Of a stretch of 64,000 nt of DNA, positions 2,997 to 34,459 are shown piece by piece. How positions within the stretch are numbered: the stretch's first letter is position 1; each line of letters starts with the position of its first letter. The notes below the pieces were generated by a model. It saw only the letters and a list, made by a program, of their open reading frames with translations. It ran no database searches and was not told the origin of the DNA. Made by a program: the position numbers and the translations under genes. The stretch lies in assembly GCA_000004985.1 (NCBI GenBank), contig GG738855.1. One strand, 5' to 3'. The DNA comes from Naegleria gruberi. Lineage: Eukaryota.

Positions 2997-5813
2997 TTGG
3001 TTTGCCACACAATGACCGAACATGATCATCATGAAGAAGAGAACAAACATGCTACTAGTTTACCGACAGGTTCCATAGAATTGGATGAAGTCATAACAAC
3101 AATTTCAACGACAAATAATCAATTGCAACAAACTTCTAATAACCATTCCGAAAATTCATCATCAAATCATTCTTCAACAACCTCTACAACAACTCGGAAT
3201 CACCCTAACCTTCCGGAAATAATAATTCCAAAGAATGAAGATATTATCGTAGCCATTTCCAAACATCATACCTCTCCAAATTCTCACCATATTCCCAATA
3301 ATAATACATCTACAGATATTGTCTTTGAGGATAATGGTGAATCCAATACTAGTTTTATGAATACAGAAGATGATATAATTTCAGATTCAACACAAGAGGA
3401 AAACCTCTATGATGATATTGTTCTATCAAATCCGACCCAACCAAACTCTGCGCGATCCAATAGTAACAATAGTACGGCAACAACAACAAGTAGTAACCAA
3501 CCCTCTCCTCTTCAACAATTAAACATTCAGCCCCATCATCAAATACAGGATGGTAGAGTTTCTCCCTCTGCAAATCCCTATCCGACAAGTTCTAATTCAT
3601 CAATTAAACAACAACATTCGGTAATCACGACTCCATCTCCTCCTTCGATTCCTTTTTCATCAGCTGCTACAAGACACCATGTAAATAATAATACACCAAC
3701 ATCATCACTACACAAACATACCACCACTACACCAACCGTAAATATATCAAGACATTATAGTGGCACCAGTAACAAATCTGATATTATCAGTATTGAATCA
3801 TCTTACTCTGAAACTTCGAGTTACAAAGCTAAAAGACATAGAGAAAGGAATATACAATACCAAACCAATACTGTATCTGAAAGGTCAAACAATTCTCATA
3901 GACAATCCAAATTACCTCCCTCTCTCATTTCTGATTTTACACCAAATAGAAACTCTCTAGTAAGGTTTCAAGAAGATAATATCATTGATAATAATTTACA
4001 TCATCAAATTTCCAAGAGACTCACATCCTCTCCAAGGGCTGAAGATGATCAAAGAATGATTGCAAGCAATTTCTTCACCAATGCCTCAGTGCCTAATCTT
4101 TTATCAATTGGAAGTAATATTTTCTTTTCTGGAAACAAGACCTCTACTGTCACAAGTAATAATGTAGACAAGTATAAGGATACTACAAATGTTCTAAGCT
4201 TACCAGATAATATTATGCTGCACATTTTCTCATTTGTTGGAATTCAATATGCAGAGGATAACAATTACAACATGCTCTGTAAGAGGTGGTATGTCTTGTT
4301 GTGCTTGGATTATTTGTGGAAGGAGAGATACTTTAATTTTTTCAATTCGAGATCAATTCAAGCAAATCCAATGCTTCTTTCATATTCTAAAGATTTTGAT
4401 TTTCCTCAAAGAAGCAAATTTAGATATAATTTAATCTTATTGAGAAAGAAGAAGCACCTCCTCAAGCAACGTCTTCTATCTCAAAACAGACACGAAAAAT
4501 CAAGAAGATACTTCCTATTCAACTCATTTGTATTGAATCCATTAGTTGCAATAATATGTTTCATGATTTCCACTGTAGTGTTTGGCCTACAAGAGGATGG
4601 TGTAATTCCAAAGAATGATAGAAATACTTTACTCTTTGTTTTTTTGCCTTTCTTCACATCATTCCTGTTTTCCATTGTTGGAAATGTTTCACTTGGTTTG
4701 AGAGAGACCATTTTCTGCAAGAATGGATTTTATGACATTTCTCACTTTATCCATTTTCTTGTTATTGTACTCGGACAGTACACATTCTATTTTTGCTCTT
4801 TACTGTTTGGTTTAAAGTGGTTTTGGTTTAAAACCTCTTTATGGACTTCCTTCTCCATTCCATGCCTTTGTATCTATATCATGTTTGTTGGATTTTGCTT
4901 TGCATATATTTTGCATAAGTATGTCAAAAGAAGAATTCAATTCCAAGATATGAGAAAGGATAGACCCAACCTGAGTGTAAATAGTCCTGAATACTTTTAT
5001 TTTGCTTATAGACTGAGATCTCATAAGAGAAGAGAATTCTACTCAAAAGCCAAATATATTGCACAACCATACGATGATGATTTTATAGAGTTGAGTGAAG
5101 ATGAAGATATGGGAAATGATACAGATGAGGATCTTGAGGATACTTTTGATGACTCTACTGCATTTGATGATGAAACTGAAACAACATCAAGAAAAACTGA
5201 TGAAATGGTTTCAACACCAAAGACCAGGGAAAGAAAGAAAGAGACAGCCAAGCTTTCTGTCTTTAAAGAGTTTGATAATCAAATGCATATTCAAGATATT
5301 ACTGACATATCCACACTTACCATTATTGTATTTATATTTCTCATACTATTTATGGTAGGATTGGAGATGATTCTGGTACCCCTCAAAATTGATGGGATTA
5401 TTGTATCTTCTTGGAGTTCTGTGTTTGTACCTCTATGGATAGTAATGTTCATTCTTTTATGTGGATTGCCGTCGTGGATAACATGGGAAATTTGCACCAA
5501 AACCAATTTAGACAAGAAAACAATAAGCACTTCAGTGGATGTCATTACTGAAGAATTTTCAAAGGCAACCACCAAAAATAAGAATGACCCAGAAAGATAC
5601 CAACGAGCATATTATTCGTTTGTTGCATGTCCATGGTGTTTTACCATTCCATTGTTTGTTGCTTTGGTTGTTCTTGCAGCCACTCTTGATGGAGCCAACA
5701 TTCCATATGTTGTTTCCTGTGCATTATTTGCATTTTGTGAGTTTGTAATTGGTGGCCTTTACTTGATGATTGTTATACCTTATACTCTAGCACACAACGT
5801 TTGGGATGTTTGA
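2997..5813 (+). CDS. F-box-like motif followed by a multi-pass transmembrane region; hypothetical membrane protein with an N-terminal S/T/N-rich low-complexity region
   Basis: Single 938-aa ORF. It has an LPDNIMLHIFSFVG F-box-like motif and at least 8 hydrophobic segments in the C-terminal half. Confidence 0.5.
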   Translation: MVCHTMTEHDHHEEENKHATSLPTGSIELDEVITTISTTNNQLQQTSNNHSENSSSNHSSTTSTTTRNHPNLPEIIIPKNEDIIVAISKHHTSPNSHHIPNNNTSTDIVFEDNGESNTSFMNTEDDIISDSTQEENLYDDIVLSNPTQPNSARSNSNNSTATTTSSNQPSPLQQLNIQPHHQIQDGRVSPSANPYPTSSNSSIKQQHSVITTPSPPSIPFSSAATRHHVNNNTPTSSLHKHTTTTPTVNISRHYSGTSNKSDIISIESSYSETSSYKAKRHRERNIQYQTNTVSERSNNSHRQSKLPPSLISDFTPNRNSLVRFQEDNIIDNNLHHQISKRLTSSPRAEDDQRMIASNFFTNASVPNLLSIGSNIFFSGNKTSTVTSNNVDKYKDTTNVLSLPDNIMLHIFSFVGIQYAEDNNYNMLCKRWYVLLCLDYLWKERYFNFFNSRSIQANPMLLSYSKDFDFPQRSKFRYNLILLRKKKHLLKQRLLSQNRHEKSRRYFLFNSFVLNPLVAIICFMISTVVFGLQEDGVIPKNDRNTLLFVFLPFFTSFLFSIVGNVSLGLRETIFCKNGFYDISHFIHFLVIVLGQYTFYFCSLLFGLKWFWFKTSLWTSFSIPCLCIYIMFVGFCFAYILHKYVKRRIQFQDMRKDRPNLSVNSPEYFYFAYRLRSHKRREFYSKAKYIAQPYDDDFIELSEDEDMGNDTDEDLEDTFDDSTAFDDETETTSRKTDEMVSTPKTRERKKETAKLSVFKEFDNQMHIQDITDISTLTIIVFIFLILFMVGLEMILVPLKIDGIIVSSWSSVFVPLWIVMFILLCGLPSWITWEICTKTNLDKKTISTSVDVITEEFSKATTKNKNDPERYQRAYYSFVACPWCFTIPLFVALVVLAATLDGANIPYVVSCALFAFCEFVIGGLYLMIVIPYTLAHNVWDV

Positions 5814-6041
5814 GATTCTTTATTTGCCAAATCCAAATGAAATTCAAAATATCCTCCGTCAAAATAAATTTAAAAATGACAAGTGAATCTCAATTTAAGT
5901 AAGAGAGAATAAAGGGATTGAAATCATTGAATTTGTAATGCTCGCCCTTAGTTTAGAGTCATACAGACAGTGCGCGTATGTTATAATGTTTCACCTCTTA
6001 AACATGCAATATTCAAATTTAAACAAATCAAATAGAGAAAG

Positions 6042-7446
6042 TTGAAAAAAATTAATTCAAACATCATGAATACTCAACACCTTTCTAATGAGCCATTCCA
6101 TAACACAATACCCTACCTGGAGCTTCTAGGCGTAACTGAATCTCTGGCCAGCAATTCAACAAGTAGCAGCAAAGGTATCAATTTTACTTCTGGCAAAATA
6201 CCTGAAGCTGCTGAAAACATTGGAAGTCTGGTCAATTCTGGCTTCTTCATATTGACTTTAGTTCCTGTTTTTATCATCCTAATTGCCTTTTATTATAAAC
6301 AAAGACAAGAGATGAAACGTAACCAGAGATTACTTTTCATTCTCGTGGCCATCCTAATTGTGGTGGAGGTTGTTGGGTTGTGCATTAGAGTTGTCTACAA
6401 TGCAACTGCACTTCACATGAACCAAATCGATTGGCAATCACTGCCTGACTTGCCTAGTTACAGAATTGTATTGTGGATTTCAGGTGTCTTGGAAAATGCT
6501 ATTGTCTATTCAGTCGTTGTAGCCATCACACTCATTATGGCCTTCGTTCAAGATATTTTGTAAGTTTATCACATTTATTCATGTTGAAATATTAAAGTTA
6601 TTTAGTTTGACAACTGCTGCAGCTGCTGGTTCCATGTCTAAAAAAGTTTACAGAAGATTACGTTACTCACTCATTGTTTTCTCAGTTGTGGCTTCCATCA
6701 TCTTGGGTCTTGTCATTGTAATTAATGCAACACTCAATTTACTAGTGAAAATGTCTATTATTGATAAGAATGCTGGTATTCCACTCCAAGTAGTTCTTTT
6801 AATTGTTTATTTCCTCACAAGTGTCCTCACACTCATTGTATTTTCAATTGTGGCAATCAGATTAATTGGTATTGTGAAAAAAACTTCAAGCAACATTTCC
6901 AGTGCAGTTTCTCCAACTCAAAAGAAGAAACAAAAAAAGGATGTGCCTTATATGAAGATTGTTGGCTTAATGTTTGGTATGATTATCAGTTCCTTCTTTC
7001 AAATCTTGTCAGCAATTATTGGCTTCCTCACCTCTTCATTTGCAGGATATTTACACATTTTGGACTATTTCTGCCAAGCTGTTGGTATTCTAATCTTTGT
7101 CGTTTTCGTTTTATTGTTGTACAATCCATTGTGGAGACGTGAAGTTGCTGAAGATCAACAACGTGCTTTGGATGATACTCAAACAGATACCTCTTCTCAC
7201 ACTCATCCAAATGCAACAAGAAAGAGTTTGAAAATTGAAACTACTTCCAAAATGCAACAATTAGATGATTTGGAAATGACACCTGTCTCACCAATGGTGC
7301 AATCTCCAAAGGCAGAGACAATCACAACAATGAGTGGAGCTGGAGAGGGTTCATCACTAGCTAATTCAATCGTTAATGGAGAATCTCAAGATGAAAACTC
7401 TCATTCTTTGATGGGAAATACTGAAACACCTCAATCTGTTGTTTAA
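6042..7446 (+). CDS. Seven-transmembrane receptor-like protein, join(6042..6559,6606..7446) with a 46-nt intron
   Basis: Track ORFs 6042..6563 and 6607..7446 join in frame. The GTAAGT donor overlaps the apparent stop, and TTTAG is the acceptor. The spliced product has 7 predicted TM helices and an acidic, S/T-rich tail. Confidence 0.55.
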
Positions 7447-26899: not shown

Positions 26900-29637
26900 A
26901 TGGCTGGATTGAAAAAACTTTTAAATAAGAAAAAGTATGTCCTCTCCATGTTTCCCTATCCGAGTGGTAATTTGCACATGGGACATGTTAGAGTGTACAC
27001 AATTTCGGACCTCATTGCTAGGACTCATAAAATGTTAGGGTACAATGTTATTCATCCATTTGGTTTTGATGCCTTTGGATTACCTGCAGAGAATGCTGCC
27101 ATTGAGAGAGGTGTTTCTCCAGCAGATTGGACTCACAAGAATATTGCTCACATGAAGGAACAAATTAAAGCCTTGGATTTTGATTTTGATTGGGAGAGAG
27201 AAGTGATAACTTGCAATCCGGAATATTACAAGTGGACACAATGGCTTTTCCTTCAACTCCACAAGAAGGGATTAGCCTATCAACAAGAAGCTTTGGTAAA
27301 TTGGGATCCGATTGATAATACTGTATTGGCCAATGAACAAGTTGATAGTCAGGGAAGATCTTGGAGATCTGGTGCTTTGGTGGAGAGAAAGAATTTGAGA
27401 CAATGGTTTTTCAAAATTAGAGAATTTGCAAACGTATGTTTAATGCAATATGATTCAGTATTATTTAGTGATGATGATTTTTAAATTTGGAATTTATTAA
27501 TAATTATTCTGTAATTCTGATTTAATGATAATTAATTGATGATTTAATGTTGGATGAATAATATTAATAATAGGAATTATTGGAAGATGCTGATACTTTG
27601 GAAAATTGGCCAATTAATGTTAGAACAATGCAAAAACAATGGATTGGAAAATCGGAAGGAGCTGAATTTTCTTTTGAAACAACTAGTGGAAGTAAGATTA
27701 CTGTCTTTACAACAAGACCAGACACAATTTATGGTGTCACTTATTTAGCTGTTGCTCCAGAAAATGATAAATTAATTGCTGCAATGGTTCCAGAATCGGA
27801 TAAATCTAGAGTTGATGCTTTTATTAAGCGTCTTTCATCATTGACAAGTGTGAAGAGAAATGAAGTTGCCAGCAACTCAAAAGAAGGTTGTTATACTGGT
27901 GTTGATGCTATTCATCCAATCACCAAAGAACGTATTCCAATTTATATTGCCGATTATGTCATTGCTGACTTTGCTGAGGGATGTGTTATGGGAGTCCCAG
28001 CTCACGATACCAGAGATTTTGAATTTGCTCAAAAACACTCCATCCAAGTTAAGAGAGTAATCAAACCACTCGATGATATTGTCGATGAAAATCAATGCTA
28101 CACTGAAAAGAATGGTATTCTCGTTAATTCTGCACAATTTAATGGTATGAAAATTGCTGAAGCTACACCAAAAATTATTCAATTTGCTAAAGAACAAGGT
28201 TTTGGTGGGCCATCTGTCCAATTCAAATTGAGAGATTGGTTAGTTTCAAGACAAAGATACTGGGGTGCACCAATTCCAATCATTCATTGTCCTCAATGTG
28301 GACCTGTTCCAGTTCCTGAAAAGGACTTGCCAGTTCTTTTGCCAACAAATATTGAATTTACTGGTAAGGGACCATCTCCATTGGCCAAAGTTGAAGATTG
28401 GATTAATGTCAAATGTCCATGTGGAAAGGGTATCGATTGTAAACGTGATACTGATACTATGGATACCTTTGTTGATTCATCTTGGTATTTCCACAGATAT
28501 ACCGATGCCAAGAATGATAAGGAGGCATTTAGTGTAGAAAAATCCGATAAGGAAATGAATGTAGATATCTATATTGGAGGTATTGAACATGCCATTCTTC
28601 ACTTGCTCTATTCTAGATTCATTCACAAATTCCTCCACAGTGAAGGATATATGAAACATAAGGAACCATTTGATACTCTCCTCACTCAAGGAATGGTCCA
28701 AGGTGAAACATTCAAAGATTTGGATAACAATAAGTATTACAAACCAGAAGAAATGACAAGATTGGAAGATGGCACAGTTGTAGATAAGAATACTCTCAAA
28801 CCATTGACAAGCGTTTGGGAAAAGATGTCCAAATCCAAATATAATGGTGTAGATCCAGAAGCTGTTGTGAAAGAATTTGGTTCAGATACTGTTCGTCTCT
28901 ACATTCTATTCAAAGCTCCATATGATAAGGAGTTGATGTGGGAACAAAATCAAATTTTGGGGCAACAAAGATTCCTTGCTCGTTTGGATGGTTTGATTTC
29001 CAACTTTGCTAAACGTAAATCTGAAAATGTACAACAATCTGAAGTGGAAACATCTGATGATGAATTCAAATTCTTGAAGGAGATTTATTCTCTCATTGAA
29101 CAAACACGTGAAGGTGTGACATCTCGTTATACATTCAATGTTTGTGTTTCTAATCTCCACAAATATGGTATTGCTCTCCAAGAATATGAAGAAAAGATTG
29201 GAAATACTAAGGCTTATGAAGAAGCAATGCTTTTGTTACCATCTGTTATGGCCCCTTTCACACCAATATTTGCTGAAAAGACCTTCAAGACAGTGACAGC
29301 TCATTTACCAAAAGATCACCCACTCAAACAATGTACATCTGTGTTCGAAACTGCCTTCCCAACTGTTACTCCAAGCGAAATTAAGGTTGAAAAGAAGAGT
29401 CAACTCTGTGTCGTGCAAGTGAACGGTAAGAGAAGAGACGAGCTCCAAATTCCAATGTCCCTTTTAAAGATTGCCAACAATTCTGAAAGACAAACAGCTG
29501 TTGAATCATTTGTTATGAGTAACAGTAGAGTTATTGCTATCAAGAGGGAACAAAATGAAACATTCAAAAAGATTATTCACGTCGACAAGATGAAACATCA
29601 ATATGTAATCAATTACATTGTCGAAGAAAAAGAATAA
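26900..29637 (+). CDS. LARS2: leucyl-tRNA synthetase, bacterial/mitochondrial type, join(26900..27433,27574..29637)
   Basis: It has the HMGH motif ([15 protein letters not shown]) and a bacterial LeuRS layout. FAN|[13 protein letters not shown] aligns with the E. coli sequence ADELLNDLDKLDHWPD. A KMSKS-like [11 protein letters not shown] motif is present. The 140-nt intron has a GTATGT donor. Confidence 0.9.
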
Positions 29638-29641
29638 AAAT

Positions 29642-31129
29642 TTATCTCTTTGGTGGCCTTATCAATTGTTTCTTCACTTTCATTGGGAACATGTTGGCAA
29701 AGAACATTGGATCTTTCATCATTTGTTCACTCATTTTCTTTGGATCCTTCATGGCTGCTGAACCAGCCTTACTGATGAATGATTTCATCTTTTCGTACAT
29801 CTTGAGCATCTTGTTTACATCGGTAACTTCAACCTTAGCTCTCTTAGCCAAGTCCAATCTTCTGGCACTCGATGATTCAACCAAGAGAGGTTGCAATTTT
29901 TCTTGTTCAGACATGCAACTAATGATATGTTCGTGATTATCAATGAATGACAAGTCCATATTATCCAATTTATCTCTGAATTTACCAATAAATTGTTCTG
30001 GAAGGTAACTGGCCATATTTTTCAGAGATCCCATCTTTTTAAGCATTTGAATTTGATCTTGATAATCCTTGAATGTGTATGCACCCTTACTGAATTGAAC
30101 AAGTTTTTGTTGAGCTTGAGCAGCATCCAAATTCATGGCATCCTTAGCTTTTTGAGCGAGAGTCATAATGTCACCTCCACCCAAAATTCTCTTAGCCAAA
30201 CTTTGGGGATCAAAAGTTTCCAAATCATCCATCCTTTCACCAATACCAATATATTTAACACTCAAACCAACAACTTGTTTCATACTGATAGCACAACCAC
30301 CACTGCTAGTACCATCCATTCTTGTCAAAACAATACCAGATAAACCAACACGATCGTGGAATTGAGTAGCAATATTCACAGCGTCGTTACCAAGCATAGA
30401 GTCTGCAACCAACAAGGTTTCATTTGGTTGAACAATAGCTCTTAATTCTTCCAATTCTGTCATGAGTTGTTCGTCAATGTGCATTCTACCAGCTGTATCG
30501 AAAATTACAGTATCAAATTGTTCACCATTTGGACCCACATATTCCATAGCTCTCTTTGCAATTTCAATTGGATTTTGTTCTGGAATAATTGGAAGTGATT
30601 CGACTTGAATTTGTTGAGCCAATGTTTGAAGCTGCATTTGAGCTGCAGGTCTGTAAGTATCAAGTGATACCAACAAGACTCTTCTATTTTCCTTTCTCTT
30701 TAATTGTAAAGCCAACTTGGCACTCGATGTGGTTTTACCAGAACCTTGAATACCTGTCACCATGATAACTGATTTACCTTCAGTGGATGGAATTAATTCC
30801 AAAGGAGCAACACCTCCACCCAACAATTCTGAAAGTCTATCCATCACCATCAAGTAAACAGTAGCAGATTTTGGTAATTCTTCAGCTTTTTGATTCGGAC
30901 CAACCCATTTTGCAATACGTGACAGTATTCCCTTATTTTCCTGTGATTCAACTTGTTTAACAGCTGCAATACCAATGGCATCCTCAGTGGCTTCCTTCAC
31001 AAATTGTGAAACAACAGATTCAGCAACATCAGCATCCAACAAGGCAACTCTAACTTTTTGCATGGCCTCTTCGACATCTTCCTTGGTGAGTGTCTTCTTT
31101 TTGAAGAGATTAGTAAAAGCATCAGACAT
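29642..31129 (-). CDS. ffh: Ffh-type (bacterial/organellar) signal recognition particle protein SRP54 homologue
   Basis: N, G and M domains are present, and the diagnostic residues are bacterial: DTYRPAAQMQL against eukaryotic DTFRAGAF, and DTAGRMHIDEQLM against eukaryotic DTSGRHKQ. It carries a Met-rich M domain. The first ATG is at 31129. The track extension to 31189 starts at GTG. Confidence 0.85.
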   Translation of the reverse strand: MSDAFTNLFKKKTLTKEDVEEAMQKVRVALLDADVAESVVSQFVKEATEDAIGIAAVKQVESQENKGILSRIAKWVGPNQKAEELPKSATVYLMVMDRLSELLGGGVAPLELIPSTEGKSVIMVTGIQGSGKTTSSAKLALQLKRKENRRVLLVSLDTYRPAAQMQLQTLAQQIQVESLPIIPEQNPIEIAKRAMEYVGPNGEQFDTVIFDTAGRMHIDEQLMTELEELRAIVQPNETLLVADSMLGNDAVNIATQFHDRVGLSGIVLTRMDGTSSGGCAISMKQVVGLSVKYIGIGERMDDLETFDPQSLAKRILGGGDIMTLAQKAKDAMNLDAAQAQQKLVQFSKGAYTFKDYQDQIQMLKKMGSLKNMASYLPEQFIGKFRDKLDNMDLSFIDNHEHIISCMSEQEKLQPLLVESSSARRLDLAKRAKVEVTDVNKMLKMYEKMKSFISKAGSAAMKDPKKMSEQMMKDPMFFANMFPMKVKKQLIRPPKR

Positions 31130-31617
31130 ATTAGAGGTCAAGTTTGAAAATAGACCATATTGTTTTGGTGAAGAGTGGAAGAATCTCACTTGTTGTTGAT
31201 TGTATTGTTGAAGAACATTTGGAGCCCAACATTCTTGTTATTTGATGAAAATAAACTTGTATGATGGCACAAGGCTGGTGAAAATACTTCCGATGATGAA
31301 AAGACAATTTTACAGTGATGATGTGTGTTGGCTGTCTTTAAAAATCGTGAGAGGAGAGAACGACTATTACTTTTAAACATTTTTTTCTAATCTGTGTTGT
31401 TTTATTATTATAATTGTTTCTTCATGTATCTAATTGATGTGATGATAACAAATTGTTGTACTATTAGATATTATGAACGACGACAATTAAATAATTAATA
31501 TTATATTATAGTTTTTATTGTTTGAAAAAGGTGTCGAAAATTAAAATCAACCAAAACAAAGACCCATTTTGGTTAATATTGTTGTTATTGTTGGTGTTAA
31601 AAGGTGGTAGAGTAGAA

Positions 31618-32286
31618 TTATTGTTTACCTCCGATGATAGACTTCAAGTGTTCGTTGAGCTTGGTTGGTGTATTCTTCCATGAGTGAGAAGTAACAAGAT
31701 TGTAGGTGGAAATGGTTGGTTTGACTGGATATTGAACAAAGAAAGTTTGAGCAGCTTCTTCTTCTCCATTGACAAGATAAGAGTACAGCAAAGCATTACG
31801 CAAGGAAGCAACTTCTCTATCAGTTGAAGCTCTCTTAATATATAATCCAAAGGTAAGTTCAGCATCAGGTACGCTACCAACTTGACCGAAAGCAGCAATA
31901 ATCTTGGCCATATCATCAATTTCCAAATCACGTGGGTGAGCATCGTAGTGTTGCTTGAGAGAAATGAGAGACTTGTAGTCGCTTGCCTTGGCAAATTCTA
32001 AAGCAGCATCACCACGTGATACCTTTCCTTCTCTTTCCTTTTTCAATTCGGCCAATCCATTCCAATTTCCTTCATAAACAAGGTCGAAAACCTTCTTGGC
32101 ATCTTGTTGTTTGAAAGAACTGGATCCAATTTTATATTCGTCTTCGCCGAATGGTGTAATAGAAAGAGATCTTGTTGTGGTGTGGAAAGAGTGTGATGAG
32201 AGGAAGACTCTTGAAGGAAGAACGGAAGAAGACTTCTTTGTACAAGCCTTGCAGATGTTGATGAGGGTGGATTTTTGGGCTGGCAT
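31618..32286 (-). CDS. hypothetical mitochondrial-type helical (PPR/TPR-like) protein
   Basis: It has a presequence-like N-terminus (MPAQKSTLINICKACTKKSSSVLPSRVFLSSHSFHTTTRSL) followed by roughly 35-aa helical repeats. Confidence 0.4.
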   Translation of the reverse strand: MPAQKSTLINICKACTKKSSSVLPSRVFLSSHSFHTTTRSLSITPFGEDEYKIGSSSFKQQDAKKVFDLVYEGNWNGLAELKKEREGKVSRGDAALEFAKASDYKSLISLKQHYDAHPRDLEIDDMAKIIAAFGQVGSVPDAELTFGLYIKRASTDREVASLRNALLYSYLVNGEEEAAQTFFVQYPVKPTISTYNLVTSHSWKNTPTKLNEHLKSIIGGKQ

Positions 32287-32370: not shown

Positions 32371-34459
32371 TTAGAATAGGTTTTTGAGTTGCTTATTTTC
32401 TTCTCTTAATGATCTCACTTCCTCGGTTAAATTTTCTACTTGTTTTGAAAGTTGTTCAATTAGAGAGAATGTCTGCTCTTGTTGAATACAGAATTGACGT
32501 AAAACATCTACATGAATGTTGGTGAGATCTTGGTGAATTGAACTCTGAAGATTGAAAATGGATTCTTGAAGTACATCCTTCATCACATCTTTCATTCTTT
32601 CCTCAGAAATACTATTTGACACAACTGGGGACCCAGTCGAGAGAGTTTGTTTCTGTTGTTGCTGTTGTCTAGATAGATGTGGTGATGAACTAGTTGCTAT
32701 TATTGAGGATGGAAGGGATTCGTCATCGATCATTTCATTGTGTTTTTGATTGTCTTCAAAAGATAACTCATCAACATTTTCGAGTGAGGGAGGAGTTTGG
32801 GGATGATAGTTAGAGGGTGGGAGAATATTCTCATTATTGGTGTCATCGACAGTGGGAGAGTTAAATTTAGGCTTTTTGGTTGGTCCTGAGGGAGAAAATA
32901 CAGACCTATCATCCTGAGTTGGTTTTAGGGATTTGTATATGGATAATCGATTATTTGTAGAATTTTCTAACATCTGACTGCTATTCAGATCAAGACTTTT
33001 GAAAGTGGTTGGTTTAAAAGGGTTTTCCAGGGAGAGTTTTGTGTTAATTTTGGAACTCAAGTGTTCCATTTGAGCTTGTTTTTTGATGTCCTCCAGTGTT
33101 GGAAATTGTGTAGATCCAATCTCAATACTTTTACCTGTTTTAACAGGAGAGAAAACATCCATACCATGATTTCTGTCTATGTTAAGTGTAGGTGGTTTAA
33201 CTTGTCTTTCTTGAGGAATGGAAGGAGGGGTTGATGGCTTTTTGAGAGATGAATAGGATTCAATGGTTGGGGATTCTCGTGGTCTTTGTACTTCAGATTG
33301 AGCTGTCTGCTGTTTAGCAGTGGATTTCTTAGATTTAGATTGAAAGGTTAGTGTTCTAATATATCCCATATCGACAGTAAGTTCAGTAATTGGACTCGTT
33401 GTTGATTTTTTCAAATCATAAAGGAAAACACTTCCATTAGATGTTCCTACAGCCATTATTGATCCATTATCCAAGTATGAAAATGAAGATATTGGTTGAG
33501 AAACTCGAATATTTTCCACAATCCTAATTTTAAAATTATATGATTATTCTACTAAACTATATGAAAATGCTTACTTTTTTTCCTTAATATCATAAAAGTA
33601 AATGTTCTTATCCAATCCTGCTGAAGCAAGGAGAGCAACATTTTGCTTTGAAAAATGTACTGCTACACATGGAGCTTGATGTTGATTAGGAAATGAGCAA
33701 TATGGCTTTCCAGAGATGGTATCCCATATTGTTACACTTCCATCATCACTGGCACTTGCCAATAGGGTTTTGTAAAAAGGTGAATATTCCAAAAATTTGA
33801 TTGATTGTTGTGTATTCGAAAGGGTGCATGAGAGAGTATTCGATACAATATTATGAATCAGAATTGTACCACTGGCATCACCACTCGCAACATGTTGATC
33901 ACCCTCGCTGAATGTGACACACGTGATAATTTCCTTATGTCCCTTAAATGTATTGATGACTTCCTTCTTTTTCAGATCCCAAATTTTTACGATACATGAG
34001 CTGCCTCCCGAACAAAGTTTGAGAGATGATTCTCCTATAGAAATTGATTGTACTTGTTCTTCAATATTTAATTTTCCAAATATTTCACCTTCAGGTGTTC
34101 CCATAATTACACTTCCATCATCACTACACGAAATGAGTACCTTATCTTGTTTTCACTCATTGGTTACAAATATTTTAATTGAAATACATACTATTGTGAT
34201 TCCATTTGGTGTCATTAATTGTTCGGTTTGGGAAATTTAACGAATTATAAGGACTCAATTTTCCATCCAATGTATTCAATTCTAATATCGATATTTGTTC
34301 GGATCCCACTATGGCCAATTTGTACAATGTTGTGGCAGATGTTGTGTTCGCATCTGATGATGAAGATGTCTTTGCATTTGTCCTATTACTGTTAGAAGCA
34401 ACACTTCTGGAACCTATTGGTGCAAAAGTTGAAGATGAAGGGTATTGTTTTGGATTCAT
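32371..34459 (-). CDS. NEDD1: NEDD1/GCP-WD (gamma-tubulin complex recruiting WD40 protein), complement(join(32371..33523,33575..34145,34192..34459))
   Basis: The WD40 blocks align with NEDD1 (IVKIWDLKKKEVINTFKGHKEIITCVTF...SDDGSVTIWD...GLDKNIYFYD). The C-terminal helix ...VRSLREENKQLKNLF matches the NEDD1 ...EIERLREENKRLRAHF. The two introns are 51 nt and 46 nt, with GTAAGC and GTATGT donors. Confidence 0.8.

Follow-up and report, generated by a model that had tools for sequence, protein, structure and literature searches.

The gene under study, encoded on the minus strand at 29642..31380 of a 64,000-nucleotide stretch of Naegleria gruberi DNA (contig GG738855.1; referred to below as the window), is the mitochondrial bacterial-type Ffh (mtFfh, or NgFfh) of this organism. 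The reading frame of Ffh is open between about 31242 and the stop at 29642, its first in-frame ATG lies at 31129, and the long ORF matches PF02881 SRP54_N (9.5e-12), PF00448 SRP54 GTPase (1.1e-66), and PF02978 SRP_SPB/M (5.7e-18). The domain order is N-G-M, the full set of a bacterial Ffh, namely the SRP54_N helical bundle, the SRP54 GTPase, and the signal-peptide-binding M domain. The best database match of the ORF was N. gruberi XP_002680081.1 (470 aa), which agrees with it save for one segment that was wrongly excised; the matches ranked after it came from other Naegleria and Willaertia (65-78% identity), followed by Ffh of Alphaproteobacteria at about 40%. Among the named matches from outside Heterolobosea, the best were Ffh of Alphaproteobacteria/Pseudomonadota (Rickettsiales, Acidocella, Azospirillum, and others), which have the same domain architecture; identity was 39-44%, and about 85% of the length was covered. 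Judged by these best matches, mtFfh appears to be nearer to bacterial (alphaproteobacterial) Ffh than to the cytosolic SRP54 of eukaryotes; a phylogeny of mtFfh was built by Pyrih et al. 2021 (PMC8321541).

The window itself is eukaryotic nuclear DNA with about 35% GC, and since the neighbouring genes carry spliceosomal introns and the top match is located on a 613-kb N. gruberi scaffold, we are dealing with a nuclear gene and not with a bacterial contaminant. Two genuine introns, one in the gene for a bacterial-type leucyl-tRNA synthetase (LeuRS) and the other in a WD40-repeat gene, served as our local reference for splice sites and composition (Table 1). The LeuRS gene is convergent with mtFfh, and only 4 nt separate its stop codon (+, TAA 29635..29637) from that of mtFfh, so the 3' UTRs of the two genes must overlap. 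On the other side, a spacer of 237 nt with 23.6% GC separates the mtFfh start codon from the end of the upstream neighbour (31618..32286, minus strand). This 222-aa ORF gave no Pfam match at E <= 0.001, and its product, XP_002680082.1, was termed a pentatricopeptide-repeat (PPR) protein in PMC8321541.

Table 1. Coordinates of the features discussed for the mtFfh locus and its surroundings in the window, with the evidence on which each one is based
Feature	Position	Strand	Basis
First 162 nt of the mtFfh CDS, codons 1-54, from the true start ATG (31380..31378) to the error site	31219..31380	-	ORF list; published protein; L006
One-nucleotide assembly deletion	31218..31219	-	Published Sanger reads; gap against L006; insertion of C reproduces the published protein
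Rest of the mtFfh CDS, from within codon 55 to codon 579	29642..31218	-	Pfam; homologues; corrected translation
mtFfh stop codon	29644..29642	-	Corrected CDS
Mitochondrial presequence region, residues 1-75 of the corrected protein	31157..31380	-	Bacterial alignment starts at L77; composition; published scores; reporter import
Proposed 125-nt intron, in fact coding: last two bases of codon 23 to first base of codon 65	31189..31313	-	GC; stops; codon score; paper (PMC8321541)
GTG, Val65 codon; mechanical bacterial-style ORF 'start', not a start codon	31187..31189	-	ORF rule; corrected translation ...QQQVRFFHSS
Internal Met85 codon, wrong RefSeq start of XP_002680081.1 (MSDAF), in helix 1 of the conserved N domain	31127..31129	-	Pfam SRP54_N; bacterial alignment
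False in-frame 75-nt GT..AG 'intron' removed by XP_002680081.1, encodes VVSQFVKEATEDAIGIAAVKQVESQ	30941..31015	-	XP_002680081.1 (P0001) against the window ORF
Genuine spliceosomal intron of the LeuRS gene, 140 nt, GTATGT...AATAG, about 18% GC	27434..27573	+	
Genuine spliceosomal intron of the WD40-repeat gene, 51 nt, GTAAGC...ATTAG, about 18% GC	33574..33524	-	

Upstream of the Ffh ORF and on the same strand lies a second, ATG-initiated ORF of 64 codons (31380..31186), which the initial annotation had pointed out and had taken for a possible separate presequence exon joined to Ffh by splicing. Both the ORF and its role as the source of a mitochondrial presequence stand, as borne out by the continuous CDS that results from restoring one base and by the published protein and predictions. 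The separate exon and the intron do not: there is a single exon, and its two ORFs are out of frame with each other through a one-nucleotide deletion. One C is absent from the assembly between 31219 and 31218 (minus strand), where the window has CTCCAA-ATGTT and the true sequence is CTCCAACATGTT, with CAT (His) as codon 55; the form lacking the extra C is CTCCAAATG / CTCCAAATGTT. Upon insertion of the C at this point, the two ORFs fuse into one intronless CDS of 579 aa, and the corrected protein is the same as the published revised NgFfh over all 399 residues compared. Because this single C is missing, the frame is shifted, the CDS is split into two overlapping ORFs, and an apparent upstream 'exon' emerges. 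By exact look-up in a collection of 15 billion proteins, the corrected 579-aa protein and the spliced 537-aa protein were both absent. We are highly confident that the locus holds a single-exon nuclear mtFfh gene, consisting of presequence and Ffh body, that is split by one missing C and involves no splicing.

The gene, its assembly error, and its presequence are already known, having been published and experimentally characterised in 2021 (PMC8321541), and for transcript confirmation, mitochondrial fractionation, and import we draw on that literature. Pyrih et al. 2021 (Mol Biol Evol 38:3170) described XP_002680081.1 as wrong, both in its CDS limits and through a one-nucleotide deletion in ACER01000115.1 that is evident from the raw Sanger reads (legend of their supplementary fig. 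S2). Four exemplar raw reads of the same genome project carry the C, the machine-read segments in that figure being ...ccaacatg... against ...ccaaatg... in the assembly. Their supplementary table S1 lists 0 introns for NgFfh, and the revised protein, which begins MFKSNSRSLLSRFLKTANTHHHCKIVFSSSEVFSPALCHHTSLFSSNNKNVGLQHVLQQYNQQQVRFFHSSPKQYGLFSNL..., runs uninterrupted through the proposed intron (...THHHCKIVFSSSEVFSPALCHHTSLFSSNNKNVGLQHVLQQYNQQQVRFFHSSPKQYGLFSNL...). As stated in PMC8321541, PCR on the 5' end of the transcript bore out the amendments to the gene model. Gene, neighbours, strand, and assembly defect are identical to those of the window, which is merely uncorrected and shows no biological difference.

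The missing base also came to light in an independent sequence. XP_002680081.1 shares its 90% cluster with an unannotated protein (P0121) of exactly 579 aa, encoded on an independent ENA metagenome contig (L006) with 99.2% identity to the window over 2,856 nt. The sole indel within the gene is an extra C in L006 (CTCCAACATG vs CTCCAA-ATG), and L006 carries one uninterrupted 579-aa ORF, though as a different strain with 16 substitutions it is, taken alone, no proof of the NEG-M sequence. L006 also shows the same convergent arrangement of the leucyl-tRNA synthetase and mtFfh genes. The orthologous loci of Naegleria sp. (two contigs, L001 and L002), of Willaertia magna (L003), and of an N. fowleri-like contig (L005) likewise each hold a single continuous ORF. 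Its N-terminal extension is about 70 aa or longer, and none of the four loci has an intron at the presequence position.

As for the intron proposed at 31313..31189, its two landmarks, GTAAAA at 31313 and AG at 31190/31189, are both present, and the arithmetic is right: removing these 125 nt joins the ORFs in frame and without a stop (MFKSNSRSLLSRFLKTANTHHH-LRFFHSSPKQYGLFSNLTSN-MSDAF), the first exon ending in phase 1. The AG is not, as had been asserted, the only one in the region, further ones having their G at 31287, 31275, 31256, 31234, and 31185. The ORF list does place a GTG 'start' at the acceptor; its coincidence with the AG is an artefact of the bacterial rule applied there, by which an ORF begins at the first ATG, GTG, or TTG after an in-frame stop. 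In composition, the segment reads as coding sequence. Its GC content is 33.6%, as against 17.9% and 17.6% in the genuine local introns (n=2); it has 0, 2, and 0 stops in the three frames, the coding frame being stop-free, against 2-12 per frame in the genuine introns; and its codon log-likelihood is +9.4 in frame versus -6.5 and -13.5 out of frame, while the two genuine introns score from -17 to -101. At position +5, the donor GTAAAA does not have the G found in both local donors, GTATGT and GTAAGC (n=2). Furthermore, past the proposed donor the upstream ORF runs on without a stop for another 42 codons, as far as its overlap with the stretch in which the Ffh frame is open, and this is more than chance would give (P about 0.03-0.05 if non-coding). 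The segment 31313..31189 also encodes a patch, SLFSSNNK, that resembles NLFLNNG of N. fowleri and SIFLNNN of Willaertia.

What might be counted in favour of splicing, namely a 67-nt first exon (31380..31314) joined over the GTAAAA...CAAG intron to 31188 to give a 43-aa presequence, is that the resulting N-terminus is stop-free, basic, and without acidic residues, that Naegleria genes do have spliceosomal introns (two within the window), and that the frame would be kept even in the corrected sequence. The restoration of frame, however, carries no weight per se: from the ATG to MSDAF there are 11 GT..AG pairs, each spanning 30 nt or more, that restore a frame without stops, and when the intervening sequence was shuffled 2,000 times, 100% of the shuffles contained at least one such pair (mean 5.7). 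One missing base accounts for the break in frame. With the coding-like GC, stop content, and codon score, the poor donor, the published count of introns and PCR check of the transcript 5' end, and the absence of an intron here from the relatives all standing against it, we regard this splicing as very improbable. It would delete 42 genuine codons (C23-Q64), including the patch weakly conserved among relatives, and turn V65 into L, while keeping residues 1-22 and R66 onward; the real extension measures about 75 aa and not 43. All 11 candidate introns, among them 31270..31185 (86 nt) and 31256..31189 (68 nt), were rejected on the same grounds. In the true sequence the proposed intron becomes 126 nt long and is still in frame, so the logic of frames alone leaves room for a rare spliced isoform, against which argue the composition, the quality of the donor, the comparative data, and the published transcript check.

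It might also be thought that the one-base deletion is real, either as one of the alleles in a strain that is heterozygous or polyploid, or as a true frameshift, in which case ribosomal frameshifting would be needed or the locus would be a pseudogene copy. The assembled consensus does lack the base, but the four raw Sanger reads carrying the C, the absence of which was termed an assembly error, and the detection of the protein by mass spectrometry in mitochondrial fractions (both PMC8321541) tell against this. So does the comparison of strains: between the window and L006, the changes in mature Ffh number 7 synonymous and 0 non-synonymous, those in the presequence 1 synonymous and 3 non-synonymous (H21Q, N50S, and G52V; the four sites being 31324, 31318, 31232, and 31226). 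By these counts, mature Ffh is under strong purifying selection between strains and the constraint on the targeting peptide is relaxed, as is commonly seen where a targeting peptide under loose constraint precedes a constrained enzyme. We accordingly give a real deletion hardly any chance.

That Ffh needs a start upstream of the first ATG in its own frame, as originally suspected, proved to be right. In the alignment with bacteria and heterolobosean relatives, Met1-Phe2 of bacterial Ffh corresponds to L77-F78 within GLFSNLTSN, 8 residues before the Met at 31129, and no in-frame ATG occurs in the Ffh frame between the upstream stop and 31129. Since the Pfam SRP54_N match as well as the alignments with bacteria and relatives begin upstream, ATG 31129 cannot be the true start. 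The notion that the ORF at 31380 is an independent uORF or a separate small gene, with Ffh starting at 31129 devoid of any targeting extension, agrees with the RefSeq model but is barely credible, as it would cut off those 8 residues shared with bacterial Ffh and all relatives, the beginning of the SRP54_N domain included, would leave the frame no earlier ATG, and disregards that the corrected sequence forms one continuous ORF.

On the single-exon reading, translation starts at ATG 31380 and proceeds uninterrupted over 579 codons with splicing playing no part, residues 1 to about 75 constitute a basic, Ser/Leu/Phe/His-rich presequence directing mitochondrial import, and the body equivalent to bacterial Ffh starts at G76-L77 (GLFSNL...). 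With the C restored, 75 residues precede the position equivalent to bacterial Met1, an extension that bacterial Ffh does not have; the region spans 224 nt in the window and 225 nt in reality. These residues comprise 5 K, 3 R, 7 H, 13 S, 7 L, 7 F, 1 E, and 0 D, and form an N-terminal, net positive, hydroxylated, nearly acid-free segment rich in Ser, Leu, Arg, and Lys. The freedom from acidic residues that had been ascribed to the upstream ORF holds for the parts kept by the proposed splice but not for the whole 64-aa ORF, which contains E31. In a crude test for an amphipathic helix, the maximum hydrophobic moment over 11 residues was 1.76 in the presequence, vs 1.67 +/- 0.25 in shuffles, a difference short of significance (P = 0.34). 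The targeting evidence comes from PMC8321541: the revised protein scored 0.908 (TargetP mTP), 0.926 (MitoProt), 0.971 (MitoFates), and 0.87 (Predotar); NgFfh was detected by mass spectrometry in mitochondrial fractions and, in LOPIT proteomics, co-purified with mitochondrial markers; and mNeonGreen carrying the N-terminal leader localised to the mitochondrion of Trypanosoma brucei, into which full-length NgFfh was likewise imported. The MS peptides shown there include 0 within the N-terminal extension, which is consistent with cleavage of the presequence but does not prove it.

A motif of the form [R/K/Q]-x-[F/Y]-H-[S/T]-S-x3-[Y/F] stands directly before G-[LIV]-F-S in mtFfh of Naegleria and Willaertia (31157..31186, minus strand; alignment columns about 93-104). 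By eye, the stretch R66-F-F68-H-S-S71-P-K-Q-Y75 / G76 fits the R-10 processing pattern, and the motif is partly conserved in relatives. Cleavage possibly takes place at an R-10-type site (MPP plus octapeptidyl peptidase) before G76, which would leave GLFSNL as the equivalent of the bacterial N-terminus. A more far-reaching scheme, which we consider very unlikely, is that a minor isoform, present besides the unspliced mRNA and without the in-frame 126-nt GTAAAA...CAAG segment, would have its presequence shortened to 33 aa, perhaps with a different import efficiency or dual localisation, and that, separately, [R/K]-x-[F/Y]-H-[S/T]-S-x3-[Y/F] / G-[LIV]-F-S may mark two-step processing by MPP and an Oct1-type activity, regenerating a bacterial-like N-terminus.

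The other heteroloboseans offer the closest parallels. Their mtFfh genes (N. fowleri KAF0980917.1, Naegleria sp. metagenome contigs, Willaertia magna ABK040_007831, and Acrasis kona) share with NgFfh an intronless single ORF, the bacterial-type N-G-M architecture, and a poorly conserved N-terminal extension before a start, G-[LIVM]-F-S, that is conserved; in the mature part, those of Naegleria and Willaertia show 65-78% identity to NgFfh. The extensions differ in length and sequence, and for N. fowleri mtFfh the true start Met was described as uncertain (PMC8321541). In Willaertia magna JBEGDK010000031.1, two mtFfh copies are arranged in tandem (3001..4701 and 5627..7327) with a spacing of 2,626 nt; their 1,701-nt coding sequences are 100% identical, and an ungapped comparison revealed no similarity in the 400 nt upstream of each. 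This pair could be the outcome of a very recent duplication, of gene conversion, or of an assembly artefact.

Further afield, the N-terminus MF(D/S)xL of alphaproteobacterial Ffh aligns with LFSNL of NgFfh; unlike NgFfh, the alphaproteobacterial protein lacks the presequence of about 75 aa and is not nuclear-encoded. The plastid cpSRP54 is, like mtFfh, a bacteria-derived Ffh, nuclear-encoded and imported into its organelle by means of an N-terminal targeting peptide (PMC8321541). It differs in being of cyanobacterial and not alphaproteobacterial origin, in having a transit peptide instead of a mitochondrial presequence, and in the organelle it serves.

XP_002680081.1 is still wrong at two places, and its users will miss both the targeting signal and 25 internal residues. 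The second place is the 75-nt stretch at 30941..31015 (minus strand), which is coding because MS peptides, VALLDADVAESVVSQFVK and EATEDAIGIAAVK, cover it (PMC8321541, supplementary fig. S1B). There is a more general lesson to be drawn. When adjacent ORFs lie on the same strand in different frames and their open regions overlap, an error of one base in sequencing or assembly is a better explanation than an intron, and the existence of a frame-restoring GT..AG pair has almost no information value. As to the biology, covariance-model searches identified no mitochondrial SRP RNA partner (PMC8321541), and what the corrected gene represents is a vestigial bacterial SRP pathway kept in the mitochondria of a few protists.
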